From: Lachnospiraceae bacterium
GTDB lineage: Bacteria; Bacillota; Clostridia; Lachnospirales; Lachnospiraceae
Direction: 5' to 3'
NCBI GenBank assembly: GCA_045124315.1
Contig: JBGVLO010000009.1
Span: 5,348-69,347 of the forward strand
DNA: 64,000 nt
Positions 3,474-50,445 of the stretch are shown piece after piece. The position numbers were made by a program, and so were the translations under genes. Under the pieces are notes generated by a model, which ran no database searches, was not told where the DNA came from, and saw nothing but the letters and a program-made list of their open reading frames with translations. How positions within the stretch are numbered: the first letter of the stretch is position 1; the number at the start of each line of letters is the position of its first letter.

Positions 3474-3549
3474 ATGTTACAATTTTTCGTATATGAAAGG
3501 AATGTAAGTTGTGAAGATAGTTGTAAAAGATAAGATTTCTATTATGTTA

Positions 3550-3745: not shown

Positions 3746-3805
3746 TTAAGAATATTCTTGCGACAGACGGGAACTCTTAAAATATGGAATGCGTAATGCG
3801 AGTAG

Positions 3806-3904: not shown

Positions 3905-3951
3905 GCTATATAAGAAACTTTTTAAAAGTATAAGAAATAGGTGATGATGTG

Positions 3952-7519: not shown

Positions 7520-7549
7520 AGGAGAATAGTTTGTGGAAGGAGCGGATAC

Positions 7550-8356: not shown

Positions 8357-8399
8357 GGAAATCAAAGGACGCAGAACATGCGTAGAAAGTGAGGTAAAT

Positions 8400-10619: not shown

Positions 10620-11033
10620 ATGAAAAGAAAAAATATACAGCAGATCCAAAAAAATGGAGATAAAATCACACAAACAACGACGGATATTGTACTTTCCTTT
10701 GGTGGAAAGAGAAAGGTGCTCAGTACCTCTAGTTTATGTGGTGGAATACATACAGAATTAGAAGCTGTATTTAATAAGAGTTGTTATTCCGAACAGTACG
10801 CAAGTGGCTCCGGTACAGATGGTGTGATTGTGATTGGAGATATGGAATCAAATATTAAGTTGTTTCATGCAAATACAGATGTAAGACTTGGAGAGTGTAT
10901 CGGAAAAGCAGTATCAAATGCAGTTGCAGAGCAATTGCACTTACAAATGATATATGAAGAAAAATACATTTCACCAAAATCAATGTCACAAGAAAAAGCA
11001 GAAACTTTTCTTTCTGCCTATAAATATGAATAA
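10620..11033 (+). CDS. cbiZ: CbiZ-family (adenosylcobinamide amidohydrolase)-like protein, abnormally short (probable internal deletion)
   Basis: The N-terminal block LSFGGKRKVLSTSSLCGG and the C-terminal block ASGSGTDGVIVIG...RLGECIGKAVSNAV resemble the two ends of CbiZ. The central roughly 100 aa expected between them is missing (137 aa total). Confidence 0.5.
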   Translation: MKRKNIQQIQKNGDKITQTTTDIVLSFGGKRKVLSTSSLCGGIHTELEAVFNKSCYSEQYASGSGTDGVIVIGDMESNIKLFHANTDVRLGECIGKAVSNAVAEQLHLQMIYEEKYISPKSMSQEKAETFLSAYKYE

Positions 11034-13680: not shown

Positions 13681-13969
13681 GCATATAATTGAGTGTGATG
13701 TCGGAAAGCAAATAAGTGTTTATGCTCCAGCCCATCAGCATTGTAACTGAAATACCGCATAGCAGTACTGCTAAACATGTGATTTTCTTATGACATTTTT
13801 TTAATAGGAGTCCAGTGGGAAAACCGACGATAGCACCAATTACAATTGGAAGAAAAATCATAACCGGAATCATGTAAAGCGGAAGTGTACCACTGGAAGC
13901 TGTGCGGGCAACCAAAGAATTCACTGTAAAAAATACTACAATTCCCACTATATCGTCTAATATAGTCAT
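13604..13969 (-). pseudogene. Cation:proton antiporter (Na+/H+ exchanger family) internal fragment
   Basis: LDDIVGIVVFFTVNSLVA...PIVIGAIVGFPTGLLL is typical of the middle of CPA-type antiporters. It is only about 100 aa, with no N- or C-terminal parts. Confidence 0.5.
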
Positions 13970-14310
13970 TGGGAGAAGGGTGTCTGTAACAGGTCCTTTT
14001 GCATGAAATACCCATTTAGCATAAGCTGCATCAGTCGGAAATAGGCCAGGGCATCTTCCCTTGAGACATGATCCCGAAGAATGAGGGAATCAAGAGCCTG
14101 ATTATATATTGTTTCATTAAATGAATTAAATTCTGAAAGTATAGGATTAATCCAATCTGACAGATGAGGCGGTGGAGTAAGCAAAGCTTCAAAAAAATGT
14201 GTGTCTCATTTGAATAAGTATTGAAGAAATCCATACGTGCAGACATATAGTGGTCCAGACTTTTTGTATGATTTTTGAGATAATTCATGAGTTTTTTCGG
14301 CTTTTTTCAT
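13966..14310 (-). pseudogene. TetR-like regulator remnant (frameshifted, no HTH region)
   Basis: A short MKKAEKTHE... start at 14310 is followed by two overlapping frames (14288-14031, 14184-13966). They encode a helical C-terminal ligand-domain-like sequence, and no DNA-binding HTH is encoded. Assignment is weak. Confidence 0.35.
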
Positions 14311-14416: not shown

Positions 14417-14517
14417 GAGATAAAGGAGCTAGTAATGTCTGACACAAAGAAAAATACGAATGACTGTACTTCACTTGTTTGCAAGGGATGGTTCTCAGAA
14501 AGGATGAAGATAAAATA

Positions 14518-15144
14518 ATGAATACTAGTAATATCGTAATACGTTTAGAGCAAAAAGAAGAATATCGAGAAGTAGAAAATTTAGTAAGAGAAAGCTTTTG
14601 GAATGTATATCGTCCAGGGTGTCTGGAGCATTATGTGTTAAATCAGCTTCGAAATGATTCGGCATTTGTTCCGGAACTTGATTTTGTTATGGAACAGAAT
14701 GGTAAAATAATTGGTCAGAACATGTTTATGAGAGCAAATATCCAAGCGGATGATGGCAGGACGATCCCTATTATGACGATGGGGCCAATCTGCATTACAC
14801 CGGAACTGAAAAGAAAGGGATATGGAAAAATATTGTTAGATTATTCCTTAGAAAAGGCAAAAGAAATTGGTTGCGGTGCACTTTGTTTTGAGGGAAACAT
14901 TGATTTTTACGGAAAAAGCGGCTTTACTTATGCAAGCACCTTCGGCATTCGTTATCATGGATTACCGGAAGGCGAAGATGCTTCCTTCTTTTTATGCAAG
15001 GAATTGATCCCAGGATATTTAAATGGGATTACAGGTGAGTATGCAACACCACAGGGCTATTTTGTGGATGAAGCAGAAATGGAAGCATTTGATAAGGAGT
15101 TTCCGGTTAAAGAAAAATTGAAACTTCCAGGTCAATTATTCTAG
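14518..15144 (+). CDS. GNAT-family N-acetyltransferase
   Basis: The RKGYGKILLDYSLEKAKEIG acetyl-CoA binding motif fits the YhbS-like family. The start at 14518 overlaps the stop of a 27-codon upstream ORF (TAATG). Confidence 0.85.
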   Translation: MNTSNIVIRLEQKEEYREVENLVRESFWNVYRPGCLEHYVLNQLRNDSAFVPELDFVMEQNGKIIGQNMFMRANIQADDGRTIPIMTMGPICITPELKRKGYGKILLDYSLEKAKEIGCGALCFEGNIDFYGKSGFTYASTFGIRYHGLPEGEDASFFLCKELIPGYLNGITGEYATPQGYFVDEAEMEAFDKEFPVKEKLKLPGQLF

Positions 15145-18267: not shown

Positions 18268-18750
18268 AATGACCAGCCAAGATGTTTATTATTGGCCATA
18301 TAATATATTCTGGCATTTTACGAATGGCACCCTCTGTATAGTAATGAATTTAGAGATTTAGGGAATGGGTGTACCGGTACACAAGAATTTCTTGTGTGCC
18401 CCCTTGAATTTATAAAAATTGCCCCTAGAAAAAGGGGGCAGTTTATGGTTAAATGTAACTATTCAGAAGTCTCAAAAAAGTAACAATTGGATACAATATG
18501 CTTGCATATGGGTAGCTGATTGTTACCTTTTAGAGGCACTCGAATAGTAATTAATAGACGATGGTGTCACATAGGTGGCTTCATTGTCTCTTTTTGTAAA
18601 GGGGGCATGATGTTGAAAAGACATAGTCATAGTTTGGACTACTATACATATATTTTAGGCATGAGAAATTGGGATTATGTTGATTTATTTTGTAGTGACA
18701 ATTGGACTTACTGTTTTTGTTTCATTTAGAAAAACTATATAATCAAACAA

Positions 18751-18784
18751 TTGTTACAGTTCACAGGTATGTGAACTGTAACAA
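18751..18784. repeat. Palindromic intergenic repeat, copy 1 (TTGTTACAGTTCACA-GGTA-TGTGAACTGTAACAA)
   Basis: Perfect 15-nt arms. Related copies are at 25969, 27255 and 37044. Confidence 0.85.
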
Positions 18785-18857
18785 ACAAAAAGAAATATCC
18801 TAAGAATTTAGAGGAATTAAAAGGCAGCCTGGTTTCGAAAAAAGGAGAGGAATAAAT

Positions 18858-18965
18858 ATGGCTTATTTTCCAGCATTTGTTAAGACGGACGGAAAAAAAT
18901 GTTTAGTAATAGGCGGTGGCAAGGTAGCATACCGAAAAGTAAAGATGTTTTTGGATTTCGGATAA
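18858..18965 (+). pseudogene. Precorrin-2 dehydrogenase/sirohydrochlorin ferrochelatase (SirC/CysG-N) N-terminal 35-codon remnant
   Basis: MAYFPAFVKTDGKKCLVIGGGKVAYRKVKMFLDFG then a stop. It has an RBS and the Rossmann GGGKVA motif, and nothing beyond. Confidence 0.6.
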
Positions 18966-19221
18966 CCCGCCCAGCAAAAAAAGAAAAGATTATCTAAAGA
19001 AGGCATGTGATATTTTTCTACAATACAAAGCACCGGATACCGTTTGTGGTTATGTAAAAAATATCGGTCGGGAAGGAGAGGAAATGAGCATTCTTTCCCT
19101 AAAAGAGCTGGCTGATACAGAGGTGGATATGTTTACTACTGTTTTTATTGGTAATTCAAATACGAAGATACTTCGTGAAAAGATGATAACACCTAGAGGA
19201 TATCAGATAGAAGGGAAGTAA
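18961..19221 (+). pseudogene. cbiH: Precorrin-3B C17-methyltransferase (CbiH) C-terminal remnant
   Basis: The frame reads NPPSKKRKDYLKKACDIFL...VCGYVKNIGREGEEMSILSLKELADTEVDMFTTVFIGNSNTKILREKMITPRGY. It has no start codon and abuts the sirC remnant. Confidence 0.65.
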
Positions 19222-19228
19222 TTGTCTT

Positions 19229-20389
19229 ATGAAAAAAATTTTCATAGTTGGAATTGGAATGGGTTCCCAGGACGGAATTACGGTAGAGGCGAGAAATGCA
19301 ATTGAGTACTGTCAGCAGACCCATACACCGGTAATTCTGATACTTCCGGCAAAAGGAAGGGCGATTTCTGTGTTAGCAGAACTGCAGGGCTTCTTGGAAT
19401 TTCGGAAGGATCATACAATCAAGGGTGTGATCCTAAATGGAATCAGTCCCATGTCCGGTAAGATCCTAAAAGAAAAAATTGAACAGGAGTTTGATGTGAA
19501 AGTATATGGATGTGTGCCCACACTGGAAAATTTTCAGTTGGAAAGCAGACATTTAGGACTGGTGACACCTTATGAGCTGGAAAATTTAGAGCAGGAATTG
19601 GACAATCTTGGAGCAGACATGGAGCAGTATCTGGATATAGATGGGATTTTCGCATTGGCACATACCGCATCTGATTTAGACAGCGATTGTCCAGACGGAA
19701 TCAAAAAAATTTATGAAAAGCAAAAAGATGCAATTGCAAGTATAAAATCTGCCAAGTTAAGAATAGGTGTTGCGAGAGATTTGGCATTTTGCTTTTACTA
19801 CAAGGATAATTTGGAATTTCTGAAAGAAATGGGTTGTGAGATCGTACCTTTTAGTCCGTTACAGGATTCGGAACTTCCAAAGCAACTGGATGCAGTGATT
19901 TTTGGTGGTGGGTATCCGGAAATCTATGCCAGACAATTATCTGAAAATCAATCCATGCGGGAGAGCGTGTATGGGGAATTGTCGGAGGGGCTTTGTTGTA
20001 TGGCGGAATGCGGCGGTTTTATGTATCTTCATGAGCAGATGGAGGACCAGACAAAACAAGCGTATCCTATGGTTGGCTTTATAAAAGGTAAGACAGAGAA
20101 AAAAGAGCGGCTAGTTCGATTTGGTTATGCAGAGTTGAGTGCACAGGAGAGAAATCCTTTTCTGATGGAAGAAGAACGGATCAAAGCCCATGAATTTCAC
20201 TACTGGGACAGTGACAATAACGGCAATGCGTGGAGGGCAACAAAGCCTTCCGGTAATAGAAGCTGGGAATGTATGCATGTGACAGATACCATGCTTGCGG
20301 GATATCCTCATTTGTATTTTTATTCCAATTTACAAGTTCCCATTCGTTTTTTGCAACGCTGTGTAGAGCAAAGAAAAGAAAGAGGGTGA
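19229..20389 (+). pseudogene. cbiA: Chimeric ORF: tetrapyrrole-methylase-type N-terminus (about 30 aa) fused to cobyrinate a,c-diamide synthase (CbiA) lacking its ATP-binding N-terminal region
   Basis: MKKIFIVGIGMGSQDGITVEARNAI resembles the start of a CbiE/CbiH-type methylase. From PVILILPAKG...GVILNGIS...SRHLGLV onward the ORF is CbiA, including the glutaminase domain CGGFMYL. The CbiA P-loop region is absent. Confidence 0.7.
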
Positions 20390-20394
20390 AGCAG

Positions 20395-20922
20395 ATGCTT
20401 ACCGTAGTCTGTGGAGGAAGTGGTAGTGGGAAATCGGAATATGCCGAGAATATCATTACTGCATATAAGAAAAACTTTCCCAAGAATCAATTGATATATA
20501 TTGCCACTATGATGGGAAACGATGAAGAAACCAAGCAAAAGATTCATCGCCATCGTATGATGCGTAAAGACAAAGGCTTTGAAACCATAGAGTGTTTTTT
20601 TGATCTGAAAAATGTTACTGTGGAGGAAGACAGTATCGTACTTTTGGATTGCCTTTCTAATTTAGTAAGTAATGAATGTTTTGCGGAAGGCGGCGCAGGA
20701 GATCGGACTGCAGAGATGGTTTACAAAGGCGTAAAAAAATTAAACAGCAGTTGTAAGCATCTGGTGATTGTTACCAACGATGTGTTTGGAGATTCCATTG
20801 CCTACGACGAGTATACCCGATGGTTTATCAAGGTAATTGGAGATTTGAATTGTAAAATAGCTACCTTGGCAGACCAGGTGGTCGAAGTGGTGTGCGGGAT
20901 TCCCATACAGCATAAAGTATAG
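20395..20922 (+). CDS. cobU: Adenosylcobinamide kinase / adenosylcobinamide-phosphate guanylyltransferase
   Basis: P-loop VVCGGSGSGKSEYAE, followed by IYIAT...HRHRMMR and a conserved C-terminal half. ATG at 20395. Confidence 0.9.
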   Translation: MLTVVCGGSGSGKSEYAENIITAYKKNFPKNQLIYIATMMGNDEETKQKIHRHRMMRKDKGFETIECFFDLKNVTVEEDSIVLLDCLSNLVSNECFAEGGAGDRTAEMVYKGVKKLNSSCKHLVIVTNDVFGDSIAYDEYTRWFIKVIGDLNCKIATLADQVVEVVCGIPIQHKV

Positions 20923-20941
20923 GTTATGATTCAGGAAAGAG

Positions 20942-21706
20942 GTGATTCTGGTGATACAGTCATTGATTATTGCATTTGCAATGTATTCGAAGATACCCAT
21001 GCCAAGGGTCGATTGGAATAAGAAAAATATGAGATACGCCCTTTGTTTTTTTCCAATGGTGGGAGCGGTAATCGGTCTTGCGCTTTGGGGGTGTGTCAGA
21101 TTATGTGAGATTGGAAATATGAATGGTTTCTTTACTTCTGTTCTACTTACTATTTTGCCAATCATACTAACTGGCGGTATTCATATGGATGGCTTTTTGG
21201 ATACAGTGGATGCGTTAAGTTCCAATGCAAGTAAAGAGAGAAAATTAGAAATATTAAAGGATTCCAATTCGGGTGCCTTTGCAATTACGTTTGGTATCGT
21301 TTACCTTTTGTCGTATGTAGCTGTGTTAACGGAATTTGACTGGAGAGCACTTCCGGAATTTGCGTTATCCTTTGTGATGATACGAACACTGAGCGGATTC
21401 AGTATTGCAAGCTTTCCTCTGGCACGTAATACAGGGCTTGCAGCAACTTTCCAGGATCATGCACAGAAAAGAAATGCCACTATTATATTACTGGCAATGT
21501 TTTTGGTGGAAAACGGTATTCTATTCTACTTTGATATGATTTTAGGAGGAATTACCTTAGCAACCTTATTGATGATGTTTGGTTATCACTATTATGTTTG
21601 CAGAACCAAGTTTGGAGGCATTACTGGTGACCTTGCCGGTTTCTTTTTGCAAATGAGTGAATTGGCAGTTGCATTTACTCTGATGATAGGATGCAGGGTG
21701 TTTTAG
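20942..21706 (+). CDS. cobS: Adenosylcobinamide-GDP ribazoletransferase (cobalamin synthase)
   Basis: Polytopic membrane protein with YSKIPMP, GGIHMDGFLDTVDAL and GGITGDLAG motifs. The start is GTG at 20942 or 20951. Confidence 0.9.
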   Translation: MILVIQSLIIAFAMYSKIPMPRVDWNKKNMRYALCFFPMVGAVIGLALWGCVRLCEIGNMNGFFTSVLLTILPIILTGGIHMDGFLDTVDALSSNASKERKLEILKDSNSGAFAITFGIVYLLSYVAVLTEFDWRALPEFALSFVMIRTLSGFSIASFPLARNTGLAATFQDHAQKRNATIILLAMFLVENGILFYFDMILGGITLATLLMMFGYHYYVCRTKFGGITGDLAGFFLQMSELAVAFTLMIGCRVF

Positions 21707-21739
21707 TTACTGGAACAATATAAAAGAAGGATGGTCTTT

Positions 21740-22141
21740 ATGAAAAAAATATTAATAATAGGTGGAAAATGTCAGGGAAAGACAAAATGGACACAAGAAA
21801 ATTTTCCTGAGTATAAGAATGAGTCAGCAGAAGAATTGCTAAAAGAGAATCGGCGGGGAAGAGTAAAAGGAAAAGTATGGATCAATGGATTTCATTTGTA
21901 TATGAAACAATGGTTAAGGGCAAAAGAGGATTACAAAGAAAAGACGAAGCTTTTGGTAGAGAATCCTTCCTGGATTATTGTAAGTGACGAAATTGGTTCG
22001 GGAATTGTTCCCATGGATAAGGAAGAACGGGAATGGAGAGAAGAGACCGGACGTATGTTATGCAAGATTGCAGAACAGGCAGATGAAGTATACCGTGTAT
22101 TCTGTGGAATACCAACCATGATAAAGGGAAGTGATGTATGA
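21740..22141 (+). CDS. Short CobU-like paralogue (atypical P-loop, central region missing)
   Basis: GGKCQGKT near the N-terminus and a C-terminal half (IIVSDEIGSGIVPMDKEEREWREETGRMLCKIAEQADEVYRVFCGIP) match the CobU family. The region carrying the guanylyl-His of CobU is not present. Confidence 0.55.
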   Translation: MKKILIIGGKCQGKTKWTQENFPEYKNESAEELLKENRRGRVKGKVWINGFHLYMKQWLRAKEDYKEKTKLLVENPSWIIVSDEIGSGIVPMDKEEREWREETGRMLCKIAEQADEVYRVFCGIPTMIKGSDV

Positions 22142-23115
22142 TGCAATATTCTTTGTACTCTTGTTTGATCGGATTTCTGTTAGATTTGCTGATAGGTGAT
22201 CCTCAATGGTTTCGCTGGCATCCGATTCGATTGATTGGTCAGTGGATTGATATGTGCGAAAAAATTGTGAGAAAGTGCTTTGGAACAAAAGATAAGCAGT
22301 TATTTGTGGCTGGTATTGTGCTAGCCGTTATGGTGATGGTAGTATCAACGGGGCTTCCCTTACTGCTCCTGATCGTCTGTTATCGAATCCATGTACTGTT
22401 GGGAATTGGGATAGAGAGCATTCTGTGCTATTTTGTCTATGCAACGAAATCTTTGAAAACGGAGAGTATGAAGGTGTATGAGGCATTGGAGACAAAAGAT
22501 ATACAGGAATCCAGAAGAGCCGTTTCTATGATCGTGGGAAGAGATGTGGATCGGCTGGATGAGACAGGGGTTGCAAAAGCTGCGGTAGAGACGGTAGCAG
22601 AAAATACATCGGATGGTGTGATCGCCCCTATTTTTTATACCATGCTTGGTGGACCAGTTGCAGGTTTTCTTTATAAATCCATCAATACTATGGATTCCAT
22701 GATTGGTTACAAGAATGAGAAATACATGTATTTAGGAAGATTTGCAGCAAAGCTGGACGATGTGGTCAACTTTATACCTGCAAGAGTAAGCGCATTTCTC
22801 ATGTTACTTGCAGCAGCAATTTCGCCAGAGATGGACGCAAAAGAGGCGTGGCACATATACAAAAGGGATCGAAAAAAAAGCTCCAGTCCAAATGCAGGAC
22901 AGACAGAGGCTGTATGTGCAGGGGCCTTACATATCCAGATCTTAGGACCTGCATACTATTTTGGCGTATTACATGAGAAACCAAGTATTGGTGAGGCACT
23001 GAAACCGGTAGAGCCACTTACCATAAAGAAGGTAAATCAATTGATGTACCGGACGGCCTGGCTTGCGGTATTTCTGTTTCCTTTTATTAAGTGGGGAGTC
23101 ATCTGTCTTTTTTAG
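22138..23115 (+). CDS. cbiB: Adenosylcobinamide-phosphate synthase (CbiB/CobD family)
   Basis: LLDLLIGDPQWFRWHPIRLIG N-terminal signature in a membrane protein; its start overlaps the previous stop. Confidence 0.9.
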   Translation: MMQYSLYSCLIGFLLDLLIGDPQWFRWHPIRLIGQWIDMCEKIVRKCFGTKDKQLFVAGIVLAVMVMVVSTGLPLLLLIVCYRIHVLLGIGIESILCYFVYATKSLKTESMKVYEALETKDIQESRRAVSMIVGRDVDRLDETGVAKAAVETVAENTSDGVIAPIFYTMLGGPVAGFLYKSINTMDSMIGYKNEKYMYLGRFAAKLDDVVNFIPARVSAFLMLLAAAISPEMDAKEAWHIYKRDRKKSSSPNAGQTEAVCAGALHIQILGPAYYFGVLHEKPSIGEALKPVEPLTIKKVNQLMYRTAWLAVFLFPFIKWGVICLF

Positions 23116-23203
23116 AAGAGATACTCGCAGGGCAACCCTTTCATAAAAGTGCAAGGTTTAAGTAAATGACATTGGTTCACAGGTTAGAAAGGATGGTTGT
23201 AAT

Positions 23204-24238
23204 ATGAAGTATGGACATGGAGGAGATATCTATAGCTATCCTCAGTTAGTGGATTTTTCCGCAAATATAAATCCATTTGGAACATCCGGTGAAGTGATTG
23301 AAGCAATCAAAAAAGCGGCAGAACATGTTGCACCTTATCCGGATTTTTACTGTAGAAAATTGCGTGATGCAATTGCAAATGCGGAAGAGATTGAATCAGA
23401 AAAGATAATTTGTGGCAATGGGGCGGCAGATCTGATCTATCGGTTTGTGGCAGCAATAAAGCCACAGAAAGCATTGCTTGCGGTACCTTGTTTTTCTGAG
23501 TATGAACAGGCATTGCGGAGTGTGGGATGTGAAGTGGAGTATTACAAACTGGATTCCCAGACTTTTACTTTGACAGAGAAGTTTCTGGAAGCATTGACTG
23601 AGCAAGTGGATATAATCTGTCTCTGTACACCAAACAATCCAACGGGGATCAGTATTCCAGAGAAATTATTAGAGAAGATTATAAAAAGGTGTAAGGAAAA
23701 AAATATCGCCTTTTTATTAGATGAATGTTTTCGGGACTTTGTAGGGGAAGAAAAGCAGTTTCTTCCATATAAAGACAGGAAACACTACGATAAGATGTTA
23801 ACCTTGCGGGCATTTACGAAAATGTATGGATTAGCCGGAATTCGTTTGGGATATGGTTTTTGTGAGAATGCGCAATTGTTGGAACAGATGCAGCTTTGTG
23901 GTCCACCGTGGAATGTGTCAACAGTAGCCCAGGAAGCGGGGCTTGCAGCACTAGGTCTTACAGACTTCCCAGAAAAGATACGAAGGTATATTGAGAAGCA
24001 AAAAGAGTATTTGTATACAGAATTAAAACAAATGAATCTTATGGTATGGAAATCTGATGCAAATTATTTGTTTTTTAAAGCAGAGAAACAATTAAAAGAG
24101 AAAATGATAAAACAGGGCTTTCTTATACGGGACTGTAGCAATTATACAGGATTACAGGCGGGCTATTATCGAATAGCCGTAAAGACAGAAGAGGAAAATA
24201 AGAGACTGGTCACGGCTCTTAAGAATTCACTTAGTTAG
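23204..24238 (+). CDS. cobD: L-threonine-O-3-phosphate decarboxylase (class I/II aminotransferase fold)
   Basis: HGGDIY...DFSANINPFG start and the PLP-lysine context RAFTKMYGLAGIRLGY. The position between cbiB and cbiP is the usual one. Confidence 0.85.
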   Translation: MKYGHGGDIYSYPQLVDFSANINPFGTSGEVIEAIKKAAEHVAPYPDFYCRKLRDAIANAEEIESEKIICGNGAADLIYRFVAAIKPQKALLAVPCFSEYEQALRSVGCEVEYYKLDSQTFTLTEKFLEALTEQVDIICLCTPNNPTGISIPEKLLEKIIKRCKEKNIAFLLDECFRDFVGEEKQFLPYKDRKHYDKMLTLRAFTKMYGLAGIRLGYGFCENAQLLEQMQLCGPPWNVSTVAQEAGLAALGLTDFPEKIRRYIEKQKEYLYTELKQMNLMVWKSDANYLFFKAEKQLKEKMIKQGFLIRDCSNYTGLQAGYYRIAVKTEEENKRLVTALKNSLS

Positions 24239-24250
24239 GAGGAATAAGAT

Positions 24251-24986
24251 ATGGCAAAAGCAAAGTCTATTATGATACAGGGTACTATGTCAAATGCAGG
24301 AAAAAGTTTATTGGCCGGAGGTTTGTGCAGAGTTTTTATGCAGGATGGACTTAAGACCACACCGTTTAAGTCACAAAATATGGCTTTGAATTCTTTTATT
24401 ACAAAAGAAGGACTGGAAATGGGAAGAGCACAGGTAATGCAGGCAGAGGCTGCTGGAATCGAACCAAGAGCAATTATGAATCCTATCTTATTAAAACCTA
24501 CAAACGATACGGGTTCACAGGTTATCGTAAATGGAGAAGTCTATGGAACTATGTCAGCAATGGAGTATTATCAGAAGAAAGAACAGTTTGTGCCGGCGGT
24601 ATTAGATGCCTATCATCAGTTAGAAGATGAATTTGATATGATTGTCATTAGAAGGATATGAGATTCATATGGGTGAAACGGAACTTAAGTCCGGCACTTC
24701 CTCTCTGACTACGATCAGTAATATCATTGACAATGGAAAAGAAACAGCGGATGGCGCACAGAATGAAAATGTATATGGAAGTTATGTGCATGGAATTTTT
24801 GATTCCGATGAAGTGGTAAAAACCATTGTGGCTTCTGTCTTAGAGGAAAAGGGATTGGATTGCAGCAAGGTAAATGCCTTCCAGTTAACCAATTATAAAG
24901 AAAAGCAATATGACGCATTAGCAAAGGCAGTTCGCCTGGCATTGGATATGGAACAGGTTTATAAGATTGTGGATGCCGGTATGTAA
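24251..24986 (+). pseudogene. cbiP: Cobyric acid synthase (CbiP/CobQ) with a large internal deletion and frameshift
   Basis: The N-terminal 130 aa ([21 protein letters not shown]...) and the C-terminal 110 aa (GYEIHMGET...YVHGIFDSDE) are in different frames, joined at about 24645. The central roughly 250 aa is absent. Confidence 0.8.
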
Positions 24987-24998
24987 GGAGGTACGGAT

Positions 24999-25682
24999 AT
25001 GGAGAAGATTTTATTGGGGCAGGTATTGCCAAGAGATATTGAAAAGAGAAGCTTTGAGATTATCACAGAAGAGCTGGGAGACCGAAAGTTCCCTAAAGAT
25101 CAGGAAAGTATTATCAAACGGGTGATCCATACCTCCGCAGATTTTGATTATGCAGATAATTTATGTTTTTCTGAGAATGCGGTTGCTTTGGCAAAACAGG
25201 CAATTATGGATGGCGCCTGTATCGTAACCGACACACAGATGGCAAAGGCGGGAATTAATAAGAGATCCTTAAAGAAGTTTGGTGGGGAAGCCGATTGTAA
25301 GGAATGTGGTATTACGGAAGAAGATTCTCGAAAAAAAATGGAGCATATGTGGAATACCATGTATCAGGCAAGTTGTGCTTATGAAGGGAATCTTCGGTCG
25401 AAAAGTGGCTTTGTTGGTGGAGATGGAGAACGCATAAAGCAGTATGTGGATACCAACGATTCCTATGCAGGGGCTATGAATGCAATAGCAGCCGCAGATA
25501 TGGCTTTGGCAGGTGTGGAAAGTCGCATTCCTGTAGATCAGGTGATAGATGCCATGAGAGAAATTGGGGATGCTATGCCAATGCAGTACAAAGAAACTGC
25601 CTGTGGCGGATGTGCAGCCACGGAATGGGCAAAACAGGCAGAGGGGAATATGAGAAATGTGAATGAAGGGTCAAAAAGTTAG
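24999..25682 (+). pseudogene. cbiC: Chimeric ORF: precorrin-8X methylmutase (CbiC) N-terminal half fused to an L-serine dehydratase alpha-chain-like C-terminus
   Basis: Residues 1-100 (IEKRSFEIITEEL...RVIHTSADFDYADNL...IVTDTQMAKAGI) are CbiC. The tail AMNAIAAADMALAGVESRIPVDQVIDAMREIGDAMPMQYKETACGG matches the conserved end of the iron-sulfur serine dehydratase alpha subunit. Confidence 0.6.
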
Positions 25683-25697
25683 GAGTGAAAAATTCAT

Positions 25698-25964
25698 ATG
25701 AAAGAAAAAAATAGTGCATCCTTTTTTCAGAACAGCGAATGCGAATACTTTCCATGTCACCAGGGGGCAAATAAGGAGAATTTCAATTGTCTCTTTTGTT
25801 ATTGCCCATTGTATGCTTTAGGAAAAGACTGTGGAGGTAATTTTTCGTACACCTCCAAAGGGATCAAAGATTGCACCAATTGTTTGGTGCCTCATGGACC
25901 AAAGAGCACAGAGTATATAAAGAAAAAGTTTCCAGAGTTAGTAGAAAGAATCAAACAGTTATAA
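25698..25964 (+). CDS. Cysteine-rich small domain protein (cobalamin-cluster associated, function unknown)
   Basis: 88 aa with CEYFPCH...CLFCYCPLY...CGG...CTNCLVPH, the pattern of the cysteine-rich small domain family that recurs in cob/cbi clusters. Confidence 0.75.
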   Translation: MKEKNSASFFQNSECEYFPCHQGANKENFNCLFCYCPLYALGKDCGGNFSYTSKGIKDCTNCLVPHGPKSTEYIKKKFPELVERIKQL

Positions 25965-25968
25965 TCGT

Positions 25969-25992
25969 GTTCACATACCTGTGAACTGTAAC
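25969..25992. repeat. Palindromic intergenic repeat, copy 2 (GTTCACA-TACC-TGTGAACTGTAAC), flanked by direct ATAATCGT
   Basis: Same core as copy 1 in the opposite loop orientation. The left arm is shortened, and an 8-nt direct repeat ATAATCGT lies on both sides (25961-25968 and 25993-26000). Confidence 0.8.
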
Positions 25993-26188
25993 ATAATCGT
26001 CTGTCACAGCGAAAAAGATAGAATTGTCCCTTTTCCCACCGAAAAAAGAGAATATAATTAATAAAATAGAAGCGAATCACAAGGGAGATGTACCAACATC
26101 TCTCTTACTTTATTTGAAGAATAGTTGAGAACAAGAATAAAAAGTCCTGTATAATAGATATACAGAATATAAGAAAAGGGGATGCCAT

Positions 26189-27253
26189 ATGAGTAGATTA
26201 GAAGAGTTATTAAAATGTATCCAACCAATCGATCAGGATATGTGTGAAATGTCAAGGGAGAAGTGGGATCAGGTAGGAAAGCCCCTGCGAAGTCTCGGAA
26301 AATTAGAAGATCTTGTAATCCAGCTTGCAGGTATAACCAGAGAACTCAATCCCAAAGTAGATAAGAAGGCAGTCCTTATCTTTTGTGCAGACAATGGAGT
26401 AGTAGAAGAGGGCGTTACACAGACAGGAAGTGAAGTGACTGCGATCGTATCGGAAAACTTTACAAAAGGAATTGCAACCATTAATTCCTTTGCGGGAGTT
26501 GCTGGTGCAAGAACCATTCCAATTGATATTGGTATCAATCGAGATATGTCTCATGTGAAAGGCATGGTACATAAAAAAGTAGCTCTTGGAACAAAAAATA
26601 TGGCAAAAGGACCGGCTATGACCCGCGAGCAGTGCGAAGAAGCAATTTTAGTTGGGATTGATACGGTTCGTGAATGTAAAGAAAAAGGCTATAATTTATT
26701 TGTTACCGGAGAGATGGGCATCGGAAATACTTCTACTTCCAGTGCAATGTTATCCGTATTAACCGGCGTCCCAGTTGCCCAAGTAACTGGAAAAGGGGCC
26801 GGTTTAACTTCTGACGGTATCAAACATAAAATTGAAATCTTAGAACAGGCAATTGAAGTAAACAAACCGAACAAAGACGACATTCTGGATGTTATGTGCA
26901 AATTGGGTGGTTTTGATATTTGCGGAATTGCAGGAGCGTTTCTGGGAGGGGCAATCTACCATGTTCCGGTTTTGATCGATGGATTTATTTCTGCCATTGG
27001 TGCGATCTGTGCCACAAAACTGGCTCCGAATTGTAAAGATTATATGTTTGCCTCTCATTGTTCCGCAGAACCAGCCGGCCAGCTGGCCTTAAAAACAATT
27101 GGAAAAGAAGCCTACATTCACGCAGGAATGTGTCTTGGAGAAGGAACCGGAGGACTGGTGGGCGCAAAATTGTTTGATTTTGCACTGGCTGCATACAATG
27201 AAGTTGCAGACTTTGAACATGCCGAATTTGGTCATTATGAATTATTGGAATAA
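26189..27253 (+). CDS. cobT: Nicotinate-nucleotide--dimethylbenzimidazole phosphoribosyltransferase
   Basis: 354 aa with GKLEDLVIQLAGI, FCADNGV and GEMGIGNTSTSSA motifs. Confidence 0.9.
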   Translation: MSRLEELLKCIQPIDQDMCEMSREKWDQVGKPLRSLGKLEDLVIQLAGITRELNPKVDKKAVLIFCADNGVVEEGVTQTGSEVTAIVSENFTKGIATINSFAGVAGARTIPIDIGINRDMSHVKGMVHKKVALGTKNMAKGPAMTREQCEEAILVGIDTVRECKEKGYNLFVTGEMGIGNTSTSSAMLSVLTGVPVAQVTGKGAGLTSDGIKHKIEILEQAIEVNKPNKDDILDVMCKLGGFDICGIAGAFLGGAIYHVPVLIDGFISAIGAICATKLAPNCKDYMFASHCSAEPAGQLALKTIGKEAYIHAGMCLGEGTGGLVGAKLFDFALAAYNEVADFEHAEFGHYELLE

Positions 27254-27254
27254 C

Positions 27255-27284
27255 GTTCCAGTTCACAGGTATGTGAACTGGAAC
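27255..27284. repeat. Palindromic intergenic repeat, copy 3 (GTTCCAGTTCACA-GGTA-TGTGAACTGGAAC)
   Basis: Perfect 13-nt arms with an A:T to C:G double change relative to copy 1. It starts 2 nt after the cobT stop. Confidence 0.85.
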
Positions 27285-27464
27285 TGATTTGGGCAATGCT
27301 GCGCATGGAAAATTGCCCAAATCTGCACACGGTAGATTTTCATACGGTATTTTCGGTACCGAAAATACCTACCTGTGAACAGTTACGGAATCACAACTGT
27401 CCCCTTTTCATAAAAAAAATTGCCCCTTTTCTAAGAGGACAATTTGTGTTACGATAACAACAAT

Positions 27465-27635
27465 AGATGTAAGTTATTTACAAATGTTGGGATATAACAT
27501 TTGCTATGTCGGAAACTGGTGCAAATCCAGTACGGTCACGCCACTGTAATAGGGAGCGACACAGAGGCCACTGAGAATAATCTTGGGAAGGTTGTGAAGC
27601 GTTGAACTTAAGTCAGGAGACGGATTTACATTTTG
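27465..27635 (+). promoter_or_regulatory. Cobalamin (B12) riboswitch 2
   Basis: CGGAAACTGGTGCAAATCCAGTACGGTCACGCCACTGT, GCCACTGAG...GGGAAGG and the B12 box AGTCAGGAGACGG. It is paralogous to riboswitch 1, including about 60 nt beyond the B12 box. Confidence 0.85.
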
Positions 27636-27737
27636 AGAATATTTCTGCGAACGACGGAGATCCTTGAAATATGCGAACGAAAAGAGAGTGATTCTATCTC
27701 TGCACAGATAGAATCTACTCTCTAAACAAACATATTT

Positions 27738-27766
27738 GAGGTTACTTTGCAGTAACCTCTTTTTTG
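27738..27766 (+). terminator. Intrinsic terminator downstream of riboswitch 2
   Basis: GAGGTTAC-tttgca-GTAACCTC followed by T6. Confidence 0.7.
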
Positions 27767-28028
27767 CTCTATAGGAAAGTTCGTCCTATAGAGCAAGTCC
27801 CTCATGAGCGAGGGATACAAGGAGTTGAAGTGGACTTGTCCACTTTGTTCTGTACCATTAAAATGTTCTACAATACCATGATACATGGGCCAACCTTTTC
27901 ATAAAAGCTTAAGGCTTAGGTTAATGGCACTGGTGCTTTCTTCAATGATTTTCAGCAGAAAAGAAAGGTGGTCTGGTAAATCTTAAGAATGAAAAGAACC
28001 AAAGAACGATTTTTTATAGAAAAGAGGT

Positions 28029-28271
28029 ATGTTTATGAACAAGAAACAAAAAAGAATCATAGGTCTGATAACTATATTAACTGCCGGTTTAGCGATCGCT
28101 CCGACAGCAAATGCCATGCACATTATGGAAGGATATTTGCCGGCTAAGTTTTGTGTGGCATGGGGAATCATCTGCATTCCGTTTTTACTAGCAGGTTTTC
28201 TGAAAATAAAGAAAATACTATCCGAAAATAGAAAATCCATTGCTTTCTTTCGCTATTTACCAGTTATGTAA
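28029..28271 (+). pseudogene. cbiM: Cobalt ECF transporter component CbiM, truncated after about 75 residues
   Basis: Signal peptide plus the MHIMEGYLPAKFCVAWG start typical of CbiM. The ORF ends after 80 aa and no cbiN/Q/O genes follow. Confidence 0.75.
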
Positions 28272-28331
28272 AAAATGGGAACAATGCGATCAATGAAGTT
28301 CGAGCAAGAATCGGAAAGATAGGGAGCAAAC

Positions 28332-28907
28332 ATGAAAATTTATTTTATCAGACATGGTAGAACACCGGGAAACAAGAAAAAACGATATGTTGGAAGAACC
28401 GATGAAAGTCTTTGTGAAGAGGAAGCCCTTCGATTAGCAAACAGTTGTTTTCCCAAGGTAGATAAAGTGTATACAAGCTCTATGAAACGATGTATCGAAA
28501 CGGCTCAAATCCTCTATCCGGACCAGGACCCAATAGTGGTCGATCATCTTCAGGAATGTGATTTCGGAGCCTTTGAATATAAGAATTACGAGGAACTCAA
28601 AGACGAAAAAGCATATCAAACCTTTTTAGAAACCATGGGGGAAAGTGGGTTTCCGGAAGGTGAAAAATTAGAAGATTTTAAGGAACGGTGCAGAAATGCT
28701 TTTCGGGCTGTACTAAAAGAAAGCAACCAAGAGAAGGCAGTCGCATTTGTGGTGCACGGTGGAACGATCATGGCAATCTTAGATGCCTTTTCCAGTCCAC
28801 ATAAAGATTATTATGATTGGCAGGTTGGCAATGGAGAAGGCTTCGTAGCCGATTTTTATGGGGAAGAAAATGGGGAATTTTTACTGAGACATATAGAACA
28901 TTTGTAA
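28332..28907 (+). CDS. cobC: Alpha-ribazole phosphatase (histidine phosphatase family)
   Basis: RHGRTPGN catalytic motif with a cob-locus context; 191 aa. Confidence 0.8.
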   Translation: MKIYFIRHGRTPGNKKKRYVGRTDESLCEEEALRLANSCFPKVDKVYTSSMKRCIETAQILYPDQDPIVVDHLQECDFGAFEYKNYEELKDEKAYQTFLETMGESGFPEGEKLEDFKERCRNAFRAVLKESNQEKAVAFVVHGGTIMAILDAFSSPHKDYYDWQVGNGEGFVADFYGEENGEFLLRHIEHL

Positions 28908-28984
28908 AAGTTGGTAAAAAAAGGTAATACTATTGCTTTTCATAATAAATATGACGAAATAATAGTAGTATAGGGGGGATTAGT

Positions 28985-31561
28985 ATGACGGCTTTTGAAC
29001 CGGTAAGATCAGGAATTGCGTCCATGGATCAGGAATTGAATTTCATTCGCTTAGGAGACAATGTTGTTTGGCAGGTAACAAATTTAGAGGAATTCTCTCT
29101 ATTTGTAAAGCCTTATGTACAGCAGGCAGTGGAGGACCATCGAAATATTATTTATATAAGATTTGCCTCCCACGAGCCGTTACTTTCTGAGGCAGATGGG
29201 GTACGTGTGATCTCGGTAGAATTAAGTCACAGGTTTGAAAATTTTGCCGTTGATATCCACAATATAATAGAAAAAGAAGGTTACAATGCTTTCTATGTAT
29301 TTGATTGCCTGTCTGAATTGCAGACTGCCTGGGCAACAGATGCCATGATGGGTAATTTTTTCCGAGTGACCTGTCCGTATTTATTCAAATTAGACACGGT
29401 AGCCTATTTTCCAATTATCAGAGGAAAACATTCCTTTCAGGCAATTGCAAAAATCCGAGATACCACACAACTTATGTTTGATGTGTACTCGGATCGTGGA
29501 AAGGTGTATGTGCGCCCGTTAAAAGTCTGGAATCGATACTCAGAGACTATGTTTCTGGCACATACCTATAACGAAAAAACAGGGGAATTCCGACCTTTGT
29601 TAGACGGGGTTGAGGTGAGTCATTTCTATCAATTGATGAATGACCAGAAAGCCTCCGAAAGTGACCAGAATATAGATAGCTGGGAGCGATATTTTAACCT
29701 GACAAAGTTAATGTACGAACAGGGCATGGACGTGAAAGAGAACTGTGATCGGATTTGTAATATTATGATGTCCCGTGATGAAAAAATGCGCGCTCTGATT
29801 AAGGAAAATTTCACTCCAAAGGATTACTTTCTTGTAAAGTCCAGAATGATCGGAACCGGATTGATCGGCGGAAAAGCCTGTGGAATGCTTTTGGCCAGAA
29901 AATTAATTGAGAACCATCGTCCGGATTTATTTGAACATATTGAACCACATGACTCTTATTACATTGGTTCTGATGTGTTTTATTCATACATTGTACACAA
30001 TGATTTTTGGGATTTACGGGTAAGGCAAAGACGGCCTGAAGAATATTTCTCCTTAGCAGAAGAATGTCAGAAGCGCATTATGGAAGGTACATTTTCTGTG
30101 AACCAGAAAGAACAGTTTATCCGAATGCTGGAATATTATGGTTCTTCACCGATTATTGTGCGATCCAGCAGCATTCTGGAAGATGGATTTGGCAATGCAT
30201 TTGCAGGAAAATACGATTCGGTATTTTGCTCGAATCAGGGAACTTTGGAAAAACGTTTGGAAGATTTGGAAAATGCCATTCGAACCGTGTATGCAAGTAC
30301 CATGGGCACGTCTGTGTTGGATTATCGTCTTCGACGGGGATTACAGGGACGGGATGAACAAATGTCCCTGTTGATCATGCGTGTATCCGGTTCCCAATAT
30401 GATGGATTTTTTATGCCATGTGCCGCTGGTGTGGGGTACTCTTATAGTCCATACAAATTTATGAAAGATTTGGATTCCAAAGAAGGAATGCTACGTCTGG
30501 TTATGGGACTTGGAACCGGGGCAGTGGATCGAACCCAGGGCTCTTACCCGAGACTGGTCAGCATGGACAAACCAGAAGCAACTTCTCATACTACCTCCAA
30601 AGAAAAACATCAATTTTCCCAATCCCTTGTGGATGTAATTGATTTTGCCAAAGGAGATGTTGCACACTATCCATATGATAAAGTAGTGGCACAGTTGCCG
30701 AGATATCTGAAAAACGTGTTGTTAGAGCATGACTATGAAACAGAACGAATGTTTCTGGATCGTGGGCAGAGAAGGGAAGTTCTGTTTGTATCCTGTCTTG
30801 GATTAGTTAAGAAGAAAGAACTGATGGATATGATGAAAGATATCCTCGCTTTGATTCAAGACGCATATGAGTATCCGGTAGATATTGAATACACCATTAA
30901 TATAACAGAAAATGGAGATTTCGTGGTAAATTTACTCCAATGCAGGCCACTTCATATTGCAAAGGACAAAGAAAATATATCTATGCCGGAACAGTTGGAG
31001 CCAGACAGTATTTTTCTACAGTGTAAAGGTGCCTCCATGGGGCTTTCCTGTGCTACGAAGCTAGATTTTGTAGTAATGGTGGATCCCGTTCCATATTATG
31101 AGATGGAGTACAAAGACAAATATCTGGTTGCCAAGGCACTTGGAGAAATCAATTGGGCCTTTCGTGAAAAAGGAAAACACATGATTCTGCTGGTTCCGGG
31201 ACGAATCTGCACATCCTCACCGGAACTTGGGGTGCCTACTGCATTTGCAGATATCAGCGAATTTGATGCTATTTTGGAAGTGTCGGAAACCCGAGCCGGT
31301 TATATGCCGGAATTATCCTATGGAAGCCACATTTTTCAGGATTTGGTGGAGGCAGAGATTCTATATGGAGCAGTATTTGACAATGAAAAGACCCTTGTAT
31401 TTTCGCCTGATTTTTTTGAAGCATTGCCAAACGACCTAAAGACCTATGCACCAAAATCTGCAGAGCTGGAGGAGATTGTGAAAATATGGGATGTCCGAGA
31501 ACAAAACATAGTAATGTATCATGATATGAAAGAGGAAATGCTACTGATTCAAAGTGAATAA
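28985..31561 (+). CDS. PEP/pyruvate-binding (PPDK N-terminal-like ATP-grasp) domain protein with an N-terminal degenerate RecA/KaiC-like domain
   Basis: 858 aa. The central and C-terminal regions (GGKACGMLLARK..., SSSILEDGFGNAFAGKYDS, LLQCRPL) fit the pyruvate phosphate dikinase PEP/pyruvate-binding family. No phosphohistidine swivel or PEP-utilising C-terminal domain was recognised. Confidence 0.7.
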   Translation: MTAFEPVRSGIASMDQELNFIRLGDNVVWQVTNLEEFSLFVKPYVQQAVEDHRNIIYIRFASHEPLLSEADGVRVISVELSHRFENFAVDIHNIIEKEGYNAFYVFDCLSELQTAWATDAMMGNFFRVTCPYLFKLDTVAYFPIIRGKHSFQAIAKIRDTTQLMFDVYSDRGKVYVRPLKVWNRYSETMFLAHTYNEKTGEFRPLLDGVEVSHFYQLMNDQKASESDQNIDSWERYFNLTKLMYEQGMDVKENCDRICNIMMSRDEKMRALIKENFTPKDYFLVKSRMIGTGLIGGKACGMLLARKLIENHRPDLFEHIEPHDSYYIGSDVFYSYIVHNDFWDLRVRQRRPEEYFSLAEECQKRIMEGTFSVNQKEQFIRMLEYYGSSPIIVRSSSILEDGFGNAFAGKYDSVFCSNQGTLEKRLEDLENAIRTVYASTMGTSVLDYRLRRGLQGRDEQMSLLIMRVSGSQYDGFFMPCAAGVGYSYSPYKFMKDLDSKEGMLRLVMGLGTGAVDRTQGSYPRLVSMDKPEATSHTTSKEKHQFSQSLVDVIDFAKGDVAHYPYDKVVAQLPRYLKNVLLEHDYETERMFLDRGQRREVLFVSCLGLVKKKELMDMMKDILALIQDAYEYPVDIEYTINITENGDFVVNLLQCRPLHIAKDKENISMPEQLEPDSIFLQCKGASMGLSCATKLDFVVMVDPVPYYEMEYKDKYLVAKALGEINWAFREKGKHMILLVPGRICTSSPELGVPTAFADISEFDAILEVSETRAGYMPELSYGSHIFQDLVEAEILYGAVFDNEKTLVFSPDFFEALPNDLKTYAPKSAELEEIVKIWDVREQNIVMYHDMKEEMLLIQSE

Positions 31562-37043: not shown

Positions 37044-37073
37044 GTTATAGTTTACATACCTGTAAACTGTAAC
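37044..37073. repeat. Palindromic intergenic repeat, copy 4 (GTTATAGTTTACA-TACC-TGTAAACTGTAAC)
   Basis: Same architecture as copies 1-3 with a compensated C:G to T:A change and one T/G (wobble) position. It lies between the blaI promoter and the start codon. Confidence 0.8.
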
Positions 37074-50143: not shown

Positions 50144-50169
50144 TGACAATCCCTCCTAAATAATTGATA

Positions 50170-50282: not shown

Positions 50283-50445
50283 CATATATAATCAAGCCAT
50301 ATGGCAGGATTAATCTATCACCACTCTCTTTCATTGTATCAAATCTATTATCATGAAACAAGAAACTTTCTGATTATATAAAGTTGAAAGAACCTTTTCA
50401 TTCCTGTATGATAAAATACGAAGAACAAAAGAAGGGAGGCTTTTT

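Follow-up and report, generated by a model that had tools for sequence, protein, structure and literature searches.

A stretch of 64 kb from the genome of a Lachnospiraceae bacterium (contig JBGVLO010000009.1; hereafter 'the window') contains, between 18.8 and 28.9 kb, a cobalamin (vitamin B12) locus in which the genes for corrin-ring synthesis persist only as fragments and those for assembly of the nucleotide loop are full length. In order along the + strand, this locus comprises sirC', cbiH', a cbiET'-cbiA' fusion, cobU, cobS, a small cobU-like gene, cbiB, cobD, two pieces of cbiP, a cbiC'-sdaAA' fusion, a gene of family PF04071, cobT, a cobalamin riboswitch (riboswitch 2), cbiM' and cobC, where primes denote fragments. 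Genes were called from a listing of open reading frames (ORFs) together with scans for Pfam and NCBIfam families, and riboswitches were identified with Rfam; all statements on gene content apply to the window and to the contigs with which it was compared (designated by L numbers). The metagenome runs that carry the locus place the host lineage in the bovine gut, and its nearest GTDB species representatives are metagenome-assembled genomes (MAGs) of rumen or faecal Lachnospiraceae, with a CobT identity of at most 81%.

Altogether, at least 11 deletions totalling ~19.4 kb were recorded in the window, most of them with 5-9 nt of microhomology at the junction. The genes that are gone or broken include those from sirC to cbiH, cbiET and cbiA, half of cbiP, cbiC, hemACDBL, a pyridine-nucleotide oxidoreductase gene, sdaAB, most of sdaAA, cbiMN and cbiZ. 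Comparison with related contigs supports an ancestor that carried a complete anaerobic cbi/cob/hem cluster, later reduced by a series of deletions. In such an ancestor the genes would have been arranged as sirC, cbiJ, cbiG, cbiK, cbiD, three methylase genes, cbiET and cbiA; then cobU, cobS, the small cobU-like gene, cbiB, cobD, cbiP and cbiC; then hemA, hemC, cobA/hemD, hemB, hemL, the oxidoreductase gene, sdaAB and sdaAA; and, further on, cobT followed by a riboswitch-cbiM-cbiN-cobC unit.

Table 1. Features of the B12-related regions of the window and junctions J1 to J3 (positions refer to the window unless L002 is named; aa, amino acids; ECF, energy-coupling factor)
Feature	Position	Strand	Description	Basis
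Riboswitch 1 (cobalamin, RF00174)	3540-3755	+	Upstream of importer operon	Rfam, 76.2 bits vs gathering score 31.5
Putative ECF-type corrinoid importer operon	3949-10526	+	6.6 kb	Pfam and NCBIfam matches
DUF4430 protein	3949-4983	+	Importer operon	
289-aa protein	4983-5852	+	Importer operon	No family match
Fused double ECF ATPase	5840-7519	+	Importer operon	Just below equivalog cut-offs
S-component-like protein	7550-8356	+	Importer operon	Weak matches to riboflavin- and folate-type models
Large DUF4430 protein	8400-10526	+	Importer operon	
cbiZ' scar	10620-11033	+	137 aa; adenosylcobinamide amidohydrolase; in-frame 411-nt internal deletion, junction ~10775	
sirC' scar	18858-18965	+	First 35 codons, precorrin-2 dehydrogenase	NCBIfam cysG_Nterm positions 1-31; blastn to L002 598-773
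J1	L002 774-7635 missing		6,862 bp; sirC codon 35 to cbiH	blastn
cbiH' scar	18964-19224	+	Last ~86 codons	TIGR01466 positions 159-239 of 239; blastn to L002 7636-8008
cbiET'-cbiA' in-frame fusion	19229-20389	+	29 cbiET codons (TP_methylase positions 1-26) and cbiA from residue ~115	Pfam, NCBIfam
J2	L002 8009-9485 missing		1,477 bp; cbiET codon 29 to cbiA codon 115, in frame	blastn
cobU	20395-20922	+	175 aa, P-loop present; length equal to L002	Pfam CobU positions 1-167 of 168
cobS	20942-21706	+	Best NCBIfam match adenosylcobinamide-GDP ribazoletransferase	Pfam CobS, 163 bits
Small CobU-like gene	21731-22141	+	136 aa; P-loop and C-terminal half of CobU	Pfam CobU positions 91-167
cbiB	22138-23115	+		TIGR00380, 239.9 bits vs cut-off 165.9
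cobD	23204-24238	+	Threonine-phosphate decarboxylase; full-length match	TIGR01140, 288.7 bits vs cut-off 290.55
cbiP' scar	24251-24986	+	N-terminal 136 aa and C-terminal ~110 aa, different frames	NCBIfam PRK00784
J3	L002 14882-15653 missing		772 bp; within cbiP, frameshift	blastn
cbiC'-sdaAA' fusion	24999-25682	+	CbiC residues 1-100 and C-terminus of serine dehydratase alpha chain	Pfam, NCBIfam
PF04071 cysteine-rich small protein (zf-like gene)	25698-25964	+	Intact	Pfam, 102.8 bits
cobT	26189-27253	+		TIGR03160, 384.6 bits vs cut-off 319.3
Palindrome-rich insertion vs L084	27254-27387	.	134 nt; member of high-copy dispersed repeat	blastn gap vs L084
Riboswitch 2 (cobalamin, RF00174)	27454-27765	+	Aptamer 27454-27643	Rfam, 83.8 bits vs gathering score 31.5
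cbiM' scar	28029-28271	+	~72-74 cbiM codons	TIGR00123 model positions ~1-41 only
cobC	28332-28907	+	Alpha-ribazole phosphatase	Pfam His_Phos_1; best NCBIfam match TIGR03162, below its cut-off

Scars and retained genes

A search with the CbiA' fusion protein recovered a full-length CbiA (477 aa, 93% identity) on contig L002 (ENA ERZ1029111), which carries, in succession, sirC, cbiJ, cbiG, cbiK, cbiD, three methylase genes, cbiET, cbiA, cobU, cobS, the small cobU-like gene, cbiB, cobD, cbiP, cbiC, hemA, hemC, cobA/hemD and hemB. Alignment to an intact relative had been proposed in an initial annotation of this DNA, made without database searches, and L002 provided one: a blastn comparison yielded collinear blocks of 95.2-98.7% nucleotide identity, interrupted by three deletions (6,862, 1,477 and 772 bp), with homology stopping at cbiC codon 100. 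The first of these (J1, at 18963/18964), where the sirC' stop codon arises and cbiH' is joined, removed the rest of sirC, cbiJ, cbiG, cbiK, cbiD, two methylase genes and most of cbiH. The P-loop of CbiA (GSGSGKT, residues 15-21 of the L002 protein) falls inside the part deleted at J2 (19315/19316), and cbiA' lacks it. At J3 (about 24646-24655) the loss occurred at a 9-nt repeat, ATTAGAAGG, and left two cbiP pieces (24251-24661, corresponding to positions 1-129 of the 480 in the model, and 24642-24986, corresponding to positions 379-479); junction alignments displayed microhomology of 2 nt at J1 and 3 nt (CAG) at J2.

All five scars named in the initial annotation were found by these scans and alignments where it had placed them. 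Three of its descriptions (35 sirC codons joined to the last part of cbiH, a methylase N-terminus fused to a P-loop-less cbiA, and a cbiP deprived of its central half, with a frameshift) stood as given, and those of cbiC and cbiM stood in part. The fusion of cbiC to other sequence was confirmed, but its partner, thought to be foreign, proved by comparison with two further contigs (L101 and L092, described below) to be a remnant of sdaAA, a gene that lies ~9 kb downstream of cbiC in the ancestral arrangement; relative to L101, ~8.7 kb is missing at this point. The fusion junction (J4, at about 25298) displays microhomology of the GGGAAGCC type and joins cbiC codon 100 to sdaAA' codon ~25. A 415-bp deletion within sdaAA (J5, at about 25467-25471, GCAGG) represents a scar absent from the initial annotation, and at J6 (25654/25655) the end of sdaAA is joined to sequence upstream of the zf-like gene, the sdaAA homology ending at 25654, five codons ahead of the natural stop. 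When JGI metagenome contigs were scanned for sequence downstream of an intact sdaAA, no match for the right-hand partner of J6 was returned.

At the right end of the locus, the most informative comparison was with L084 (CobT 97% identical at the protein level), on which cobT is followed by a riboswitch, cbiM (249 aa), cbiN (106 aa) and cobC, the last two of which overlap. A total of 859 bp of L084 is missing from the window (J7), in two deletions that removed the rest of cbiM and all of cbiN and left a short island; of the cobalt transporter, the window holds the cbiM' fragment alone. The earlier description of a cut cbiM was therefore borne out, as was the absence of cbiN, but cbiQ and cbiO, also listed as absent, need not have been deleted here, because neither is present at the cobT-cobC site of L084 (the one close relative with intact cbiMN). 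The cobC gene retains its own ribosome-binding site (GGGAG) and lies 60 nt downstream of cbiM'. It had been suggested that riboswitch 2, having lost its original target, was co-opted for cobC; since L084 displays the order riboswitch-cbiM-cbiN-cobC with an overlap between the last two genes, cobC was already the third gene of a riboswitch-controlled operon, and on this gene order riboswitch 2 is to be regarded as retained rather than co-opted, the deletion having merely moved cobC closer. A terminator scan identified a terminator-like hairpin (27738-27759) and a subsequent T-run (to 27765) in riboswitch 2, and both riboswitches of the window exceed the gathering threshold over RF00174 model positions 1-189.

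As initially described, riboswitch 1 is followed by an ECF-type transporter; a T component was not recognised among the operon's proteins in the Pfam and NCBIfam scans. Beyond the operon lies a further scar, cbiZ', that had previously been overlooked. An intact homologue (P0362, 274 aa, with a full Pfam CbiZ match) is 96-99% identical over residues 1-52 and 190-274, and the window protein is without residues 53-189, its Pfam CbiZ match being confined to positions 144-191 (the last quarter of the model). CbiZ opens the nucleotide loop for remodelling, and no intact copy is present in the window. In four runs that belong to one study, an intact cbiZ occupies the same position, between the importer and ahpC, and the broken allele occurs in 61 index blocks of assemblies. 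Because the importer also adjoins an intact cbiZ in less decayed strains, it predates at least the loss of cbiZ, and it was probably not gained as part of a switch to salvage.

The genes that had been described as intact (cobU, cobS, cbiB, cobD, cobT and cobC) are indeed full length relative to L002 and L084. The set for nucleotide-loop assembly (cobU, cobS, cobT and cobC) is accordingly complete; CobT scores above its equivalog cut-off, and CobU, CobS and CobC display strong Pfam matches and the expected best NCBIfam matches. The small CobU-like ORF between cobS and cbiB was considered as a possible further scar and rejected, as the same length is kept in intact relatives (a 133-aa orthologue is found in L002 and in more distant relatives); by this comparison it is a genuine small gene and not a fragment. 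The PF04071 gene adjoins cobT both in the window lineage and on a rumen MAG contig (L007), where the order is cbiB-zf-cobT.

Alleles of the locus in independent assemblies

Further alleles, which together form a series of increasing decay, came from look-ups of identical proteins and from a search with the CbiC' fusion. One of the less decayed, L101 (SRR13978209), carries J1, J2 and J3 and keeps a complete cbiC, hemA (with a 1-nt insertion), hemC, cobA/hemD, hemB, hemL, the oxidoreductase gene, sdaAB and a 292-aa sdaAA. L092 lacks a segment that runs from cbiC codon 183 to the 3' end of hemL, and beyond it the oxidoreductase gene and sdaAB; the 415-bp deletion in sdaAA is present, leaving a 156-aa sdaAA' with its own N-terminus; the window differs from this allele by a single additional deletion (that from cbiC to sdaAA' at the GGGAAGCC-type repeat). 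Most other assemblies (L003, L086, L087, L091 and L093-L096) carry an extra deletion of 428 bp, with ATTTCGGA microhomology, that takes cbiH', cbiET' and the start of cbiA', and in L091 and L093 a further 637 bp containing the cbiP remnants was deleted at AAAAGCAA. Between the less decayed alleles (L101 and L092) and the more decayed ones (such as L086 and L091), approximately 13 deletion events were mapped, none of which touches cobU, cobS, cobT or cobC.

Fusion proteins identical to those of the window were retrieved from independent assemblies (39-61 index blocks; sources ENA, Logan and one NCBI MAG), the J1/J2 stretch is present in bovine-gut or gut metagenome runs from at least eight studies, and contigs that span the junctions were found in runs of three different studies. 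Contigs of one run (X1) display no difference to the window across all junctions, and a contig of another (X9) displays 48 differences and the same J1 and J2. That the loss was recent, as initially proposed, is supported by the retention of the full cluster in L002 (at 95-98.7% nucleotide identity) and by the existence of the intermediate alleles L101 and L092.

The ratio of non-synonymous to synonymous divergence (dN/dS) between the window and six contigs (L002, L101, L092, L094, L095 and L084) was 0-0.35 in every segment, scars included; the N-terminal cbiP fragment, for example, displays nine synonymous differences and no non-synonymous ones. These values would be expected if the polymorphism predates inactivation or if recombination brought it in, and they indicate that the deletions are young, probably younger than most of the polymorphism. 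Synonymous divergence (dS) varies between neighbouring genes from 0 to 0.19; relative to L101 it is 0 from sirC' to cbiET', ~0.09 in cobU, 0 in the small cobU-like gene and ~0.10 in cbiB and cobD. Such jumps (19316-24986, relative to L101, L002 and L094) indicate that the locus is a recombination mosaic among strains with common deletions.

Metatranscriptome contigs from the bovine gut (RNA runs X25-X28) cover parts of 18500-29200 at 95-99% likeness, and at 18962, 24645 and 28322 they continue into an intact cbiH, cbiP and cbiN, respectively, that is, they correspond to the producer allele. The producer sister lineage thus transcribes its cluster in vivo.

Interpretation and competing explanations

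Salvage of cobinamide requires CobU, CobS, CobT, CobC and a corrinoid adenosyltransferase (of the CobA, PduO or EutT type), and CbiB and CobD are required only when the imported precursor is cobyric acid. The locus is most readily read as a B12 producer cluster that decayed, stepwise and recently, to the genotype of a cobinamide salvager, a reading to which we assign a probability of about 0.8. Across the window, corrin-ring genes at the locus exist only as fragments, and the functions lost at the locus comprise corrin-ring synthesis, both amidation steps, the synthesis of tetrapyrrole precursors, the cobalt transporter and CbiZ; corrinoid synthesis would be impossible because ring synthesis, CbiA, CbiP, the hem genes and cobalt uptake are all lacking. 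The cell would no longer make corrinoids and would instead import cobinamide or complete cobamides from its neighbours, the former being converted to a cobamide by CobU, then by CobS with CobT, and then by CobC, with whatever lower base CobT activates. An adenosyltransferase for this route would have to be encoded elsewhere in the genome, cbiB and cobD would serve the salvage of cobyric acid or represent leftovers next in line for loss, and cobC would remain under riboswitch 2 as in the ancestral cbiM-cbiN-cobC operon.

Two statements of the initial annotation are modified by this reading. The proposed switch from producer to 'scavenger/remodeller' holds for the recent, stepwise decay to a salvage genotype, but the label of remodeller fails because the window has no known remodelling gene other than cbiZ, which is broken (residues 53-189 of 274 lost). 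Likewise, the retained genes were said to be exactly the set needed: the loop-assembly genes are intact, but CbiB and CobD are superfluous for cobinamide, cbiB is broken in two sister alleles (L095 and L088), and the scanned ORFs of the window yielded no adenosyltransferase.

Several observations weigh against the salvager reading. The ORFs scanned across these 64 kb yielded neither a corrinoid adenosyltransferase nor a B12-dependent enzyme, so that corrinoid use and salvage are both inferred, and the identity of the importer substrate as a corrinoid is likewise inferred solely from the riboswitch and from the DUF4430 and ECF domains. The dN/dS values are equally low in scars and in intact genes, and provide no sign of selection on the genes retained. 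The metatranscriptome contigs carry the intact allele, and none contains RNA of the decayed allele at the three junctions that they reach. Finally, cbiB carries a premature stop in L095, a contig of NCBI MAG GCA_045126715.1 (AGA>TGA at codon 45), and in L088 unrelated DNA takes the place of its first 204 codons; some of the retained genes may therefore already be dispensable, and these two alleles suggest that CbiB and CobD may be so. The replacement DNA (L088 1-1025) presumably encodes, from an assignment made by eye, a protein that resembles ParB and the C-terminus of one that resembles a helicase, and the change represents either insertion of a mobile element or defence island into cbiB or a chimeric contig.

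Some of these observations are also relevant to the possibility that B12 metabolism is being abandoned altogether, and that cobU, cobS, cobT, cobC, cbiB, cobD and the importer have merely not yet been hit. The deletion of cbiZ, the two cbiB lesions (the premature stop and the loss of the N-terminal part), the failure of dN/dS to separate retained genes from scars, the lack of a B12-dependent enzyme among the scanned ORFs and the presence of further broken genes in the window, suggestive of general genome erosion, would all be in keeping with it. We nonetheless consider such wholesale decay unlikely, as approximately 13 independent deletions have all spared cobU, cobS, cobT and cobC; together with their block, these genes account for about one-fifth of the ancestral locus, so that a random miss would occur with a chance of ~5% (our rough estimate, not a computed value). 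In addition, every sister allele examined has the four genes and the 6.6-kb importer at full length, and riboswitch 1 is intact, as is riboswitch 2 together with its terminator. A less improbable, although still doubtful, alternative is that cbiB and cobD are themselves under selection and that the imported precursor is, or includes, cobyric acid, which the initial annotation had offered as one option. Both genes keep their full length in the window and most sister alleles, the cbiB score exceeds the NCBIfam equivalog cut-off, that of cobD falls less than 2 bits short, and the deletions end exactly at the borders of the block from cobU to cobD. Set against this are the cbiB lesions of L095 and L088, the broken cbiZ, which leaves no internal source of cobyric acid, and the arrangement of cobU, cobS, the small cobU-like gene, cbiB and cobD as one block, in which cbiB and cobD may be shielded by position or not yet hit.

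Two further explanations carry far less weight. If a second, intact B12 pathway were encoded elsewhere in the genome, the locus could be a redundant copy in decay; this appears highly improbable, as nothing observed in the 64 kb points to such a pathway, hemA, hemC, cobA/hemD, hemB, hemL and cbiMN, which it would still need, have been lost here as well, and L002, a close producer relative, has its cluster at this same site. The suggestion that the junctions arose in assembly or binning, named in the initial annotation as a way in which its reading could fail, might draw on the tendency of contigs from many assemblies to break at palindromic repeats flanking the locus, but its probability is negligible: identical junctions were seen in dozens of assemblies that are independent of one another and come from different assemblers, as well as in contigs of runs from three studies, the divergent X9 contig shares J1 and J2, and no junction lies at a repeat.

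The natural allelic series in public bovine-gut metagenomes may also record the order in which a single species-level lineage dismantles its B12 pathway, a proposal for which we judge the odds to be even. In that order, ring synthesis and both amidases would have been lost first, followed by what remained of cbiC, by the hem genes and by the sdaA genes next to them, and then by the cobalt transporter and cbiZ; the remaining fragments would have been trimmed further, and cbiB would now be showing its first knock-outs.

Known systems and other features of the window

Roughly half of bacteria use cobamides that they do not produce themselves, cross-feeding of B12 is thought to structure gut communities, and the transitions from producer to dependant, as well as their pace, have mostly been deduced from presence and absence across distant genomes. 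The end state described here belongs to a known, textbook class: the cobinamide (Cbi) salvager genotype was defined by Shelton et al. 2019 and accounts for about 15% of bacterial genomes (PMC6461909). Cobinamide salvaging has been demonstrated by experiment in Escherichia coli, Thermotoga lettingae and Dehalococcoides mccartyi, and cbiA/cobB annotations persist in many precursor salvagers (PMC6461909), as the cbiA' remnant does in the window. The locus resembles that genotype in the presence of loop-assembly genes, the absence of corrin-ring synthesis (at the locus) and a predicted dependence on imported late intermediates or cobamides. It differs in that the ring genes remain as mapped scars, that a producer sister lineage (95-98.7% nucleotide identity over common segments) and intermediate alleles exist, and that cbiB and cobD, not needed for cobinamide salvage, are kept.

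According to Lawrence and Roth, E. coli K-12, an enteric bacterium, reportedly lost the cbi/cobI genes that Salmonella has and kept cobUST and cobC. That case is similar to the window in the loss of de novo synthesis and in the retention of cobU, cobS, cobT and cobC for conversion of cobinamide to cobalamin, but its loss is old and clean, without a series of scars, and its importer is BtuBCDF, whereas that of the window is of the ECF type. A further likeness exists to CbiZ-dependent remodelling in Rhodobacter sphaeroides, in Dehalococcoides and in archaeal salvage, since ancestral and less decayed strains carry importer-cbiZ together with cbiB and cobD, the combination with which a cobamide or cobinamide is cleaved and its loop rebuilt; in the window, unlike in those systems, that route would be closed, as cbiZ is without half of its domain. 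The Black Queen concept describes the adaptive loss of a leaky, costly function, and the locus is reminiscent of it in that a costly public-good pathway was lost in a dense community where corrinoids are available, and in that producer and loss alleles both occur in bovine-gut datasets (at the level of datasets).

The contribution of this locus is that every breakpoint has been mapped, that microhomology-mediated deletion is visible, and that intermediate and advanced alleles are present in public data, so that the order of loss and the coexistence of producers and salvagers become testable in cattle-gut samples. Should linkage and order hold, the series would provide a step-by-step record of a Black Queen-type loss and a ready system for measuring B12 cross-feeding at the strain level. 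A caution also follows for marker-based B12 profiling, in which matches to cbiA, cbiC or cbiZ would, in this genome, count fragments as genes.

Short palindrome-rich intergenic elements with the core GTTCACAGGTATGTGAAC were observed at 18753-18782, 25963-25997, 27254-27392, 27767-27850 and 37044-37073, and one of them also holds a 24-nt perfect palindrome, GGTATTTTCGGTACCGAAAATACC. Two insertions of repeat DNA relative to L084, the one listed in Table 1 and another, of 81 nt, at 27767-27847, coincide with these elements, and the former attains a contig depth of 460-640, compared with ~10 for the locus. In bovine-gut runs, three bins that contain elements (18500-18856, 27068-27424 and 27782-28138) reach a contig depth 10-60x that of the locus, and many assemblies end at the elements near 18755 and 27376, beyond which the flanks vary. 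The elements look like a high-copy dispersed repeat of the repetitive extragenic palindrome (REP) or miniature inverted-repeat transposable element (MITE) type. They were considered as mediators of the deletions and rejected in that role, no junction lying at a repeat.

Upstream of cobT, both L084 (41-883) and L085 (CobT 84%) carry directly a gene for a PylS-like class II tRNA synthetase, in place of which the window holds the zf-like gene and a repeat. On L085 (1003-7953), Pfam matches to PylD, a radical-SAM protein, an ATP-grasp protein (the latter two possibly pylB and pylC) and a corrinoid-binding protein were found, and MtmB was called as two ORFs, perhaps divided at an in-frame stop; this gene set points to a pyrrolysine and methylamine-methyltransferase system, as far as family matches can indicate.

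Elsewhere in the window, an N-terminal AAA-ATPase_like piece (1159-1506) and a PDDEXK_9 piece (2342-2755) form separate short ORFs with a 209-aa ORF between them; the two domains usually belong to one protein, and the region (1159-2755) looks like another disrupted gene. A 147-aa ORF at 56997-57440 (-) matches only positions 248-364 of 369 of a glutamate synthase conserved region, and is possibly a truncated gene and a hint of wider genome erosion. A GNAT acetyltransferase gene (14479-15144) lies upstream of a gene for a copper-type P-type ATPase; on L107-L109 (about 13869-14281) a single 91-aa ORF represents it in L108 and a pair of short ORFs (91 and 46 aa) in L107 and L109, and by this comparison the gene appears to be variably broken in the population. 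Finally, an azaaromatic (yjdF) riboswitch was identified at 50162-50287 (-), upstream of a DUF2992 gene (49728-50174), and a Clostridiales-1 small RNA (sRNA) at 59806-59975 (-), with a score of 121.6 bits.

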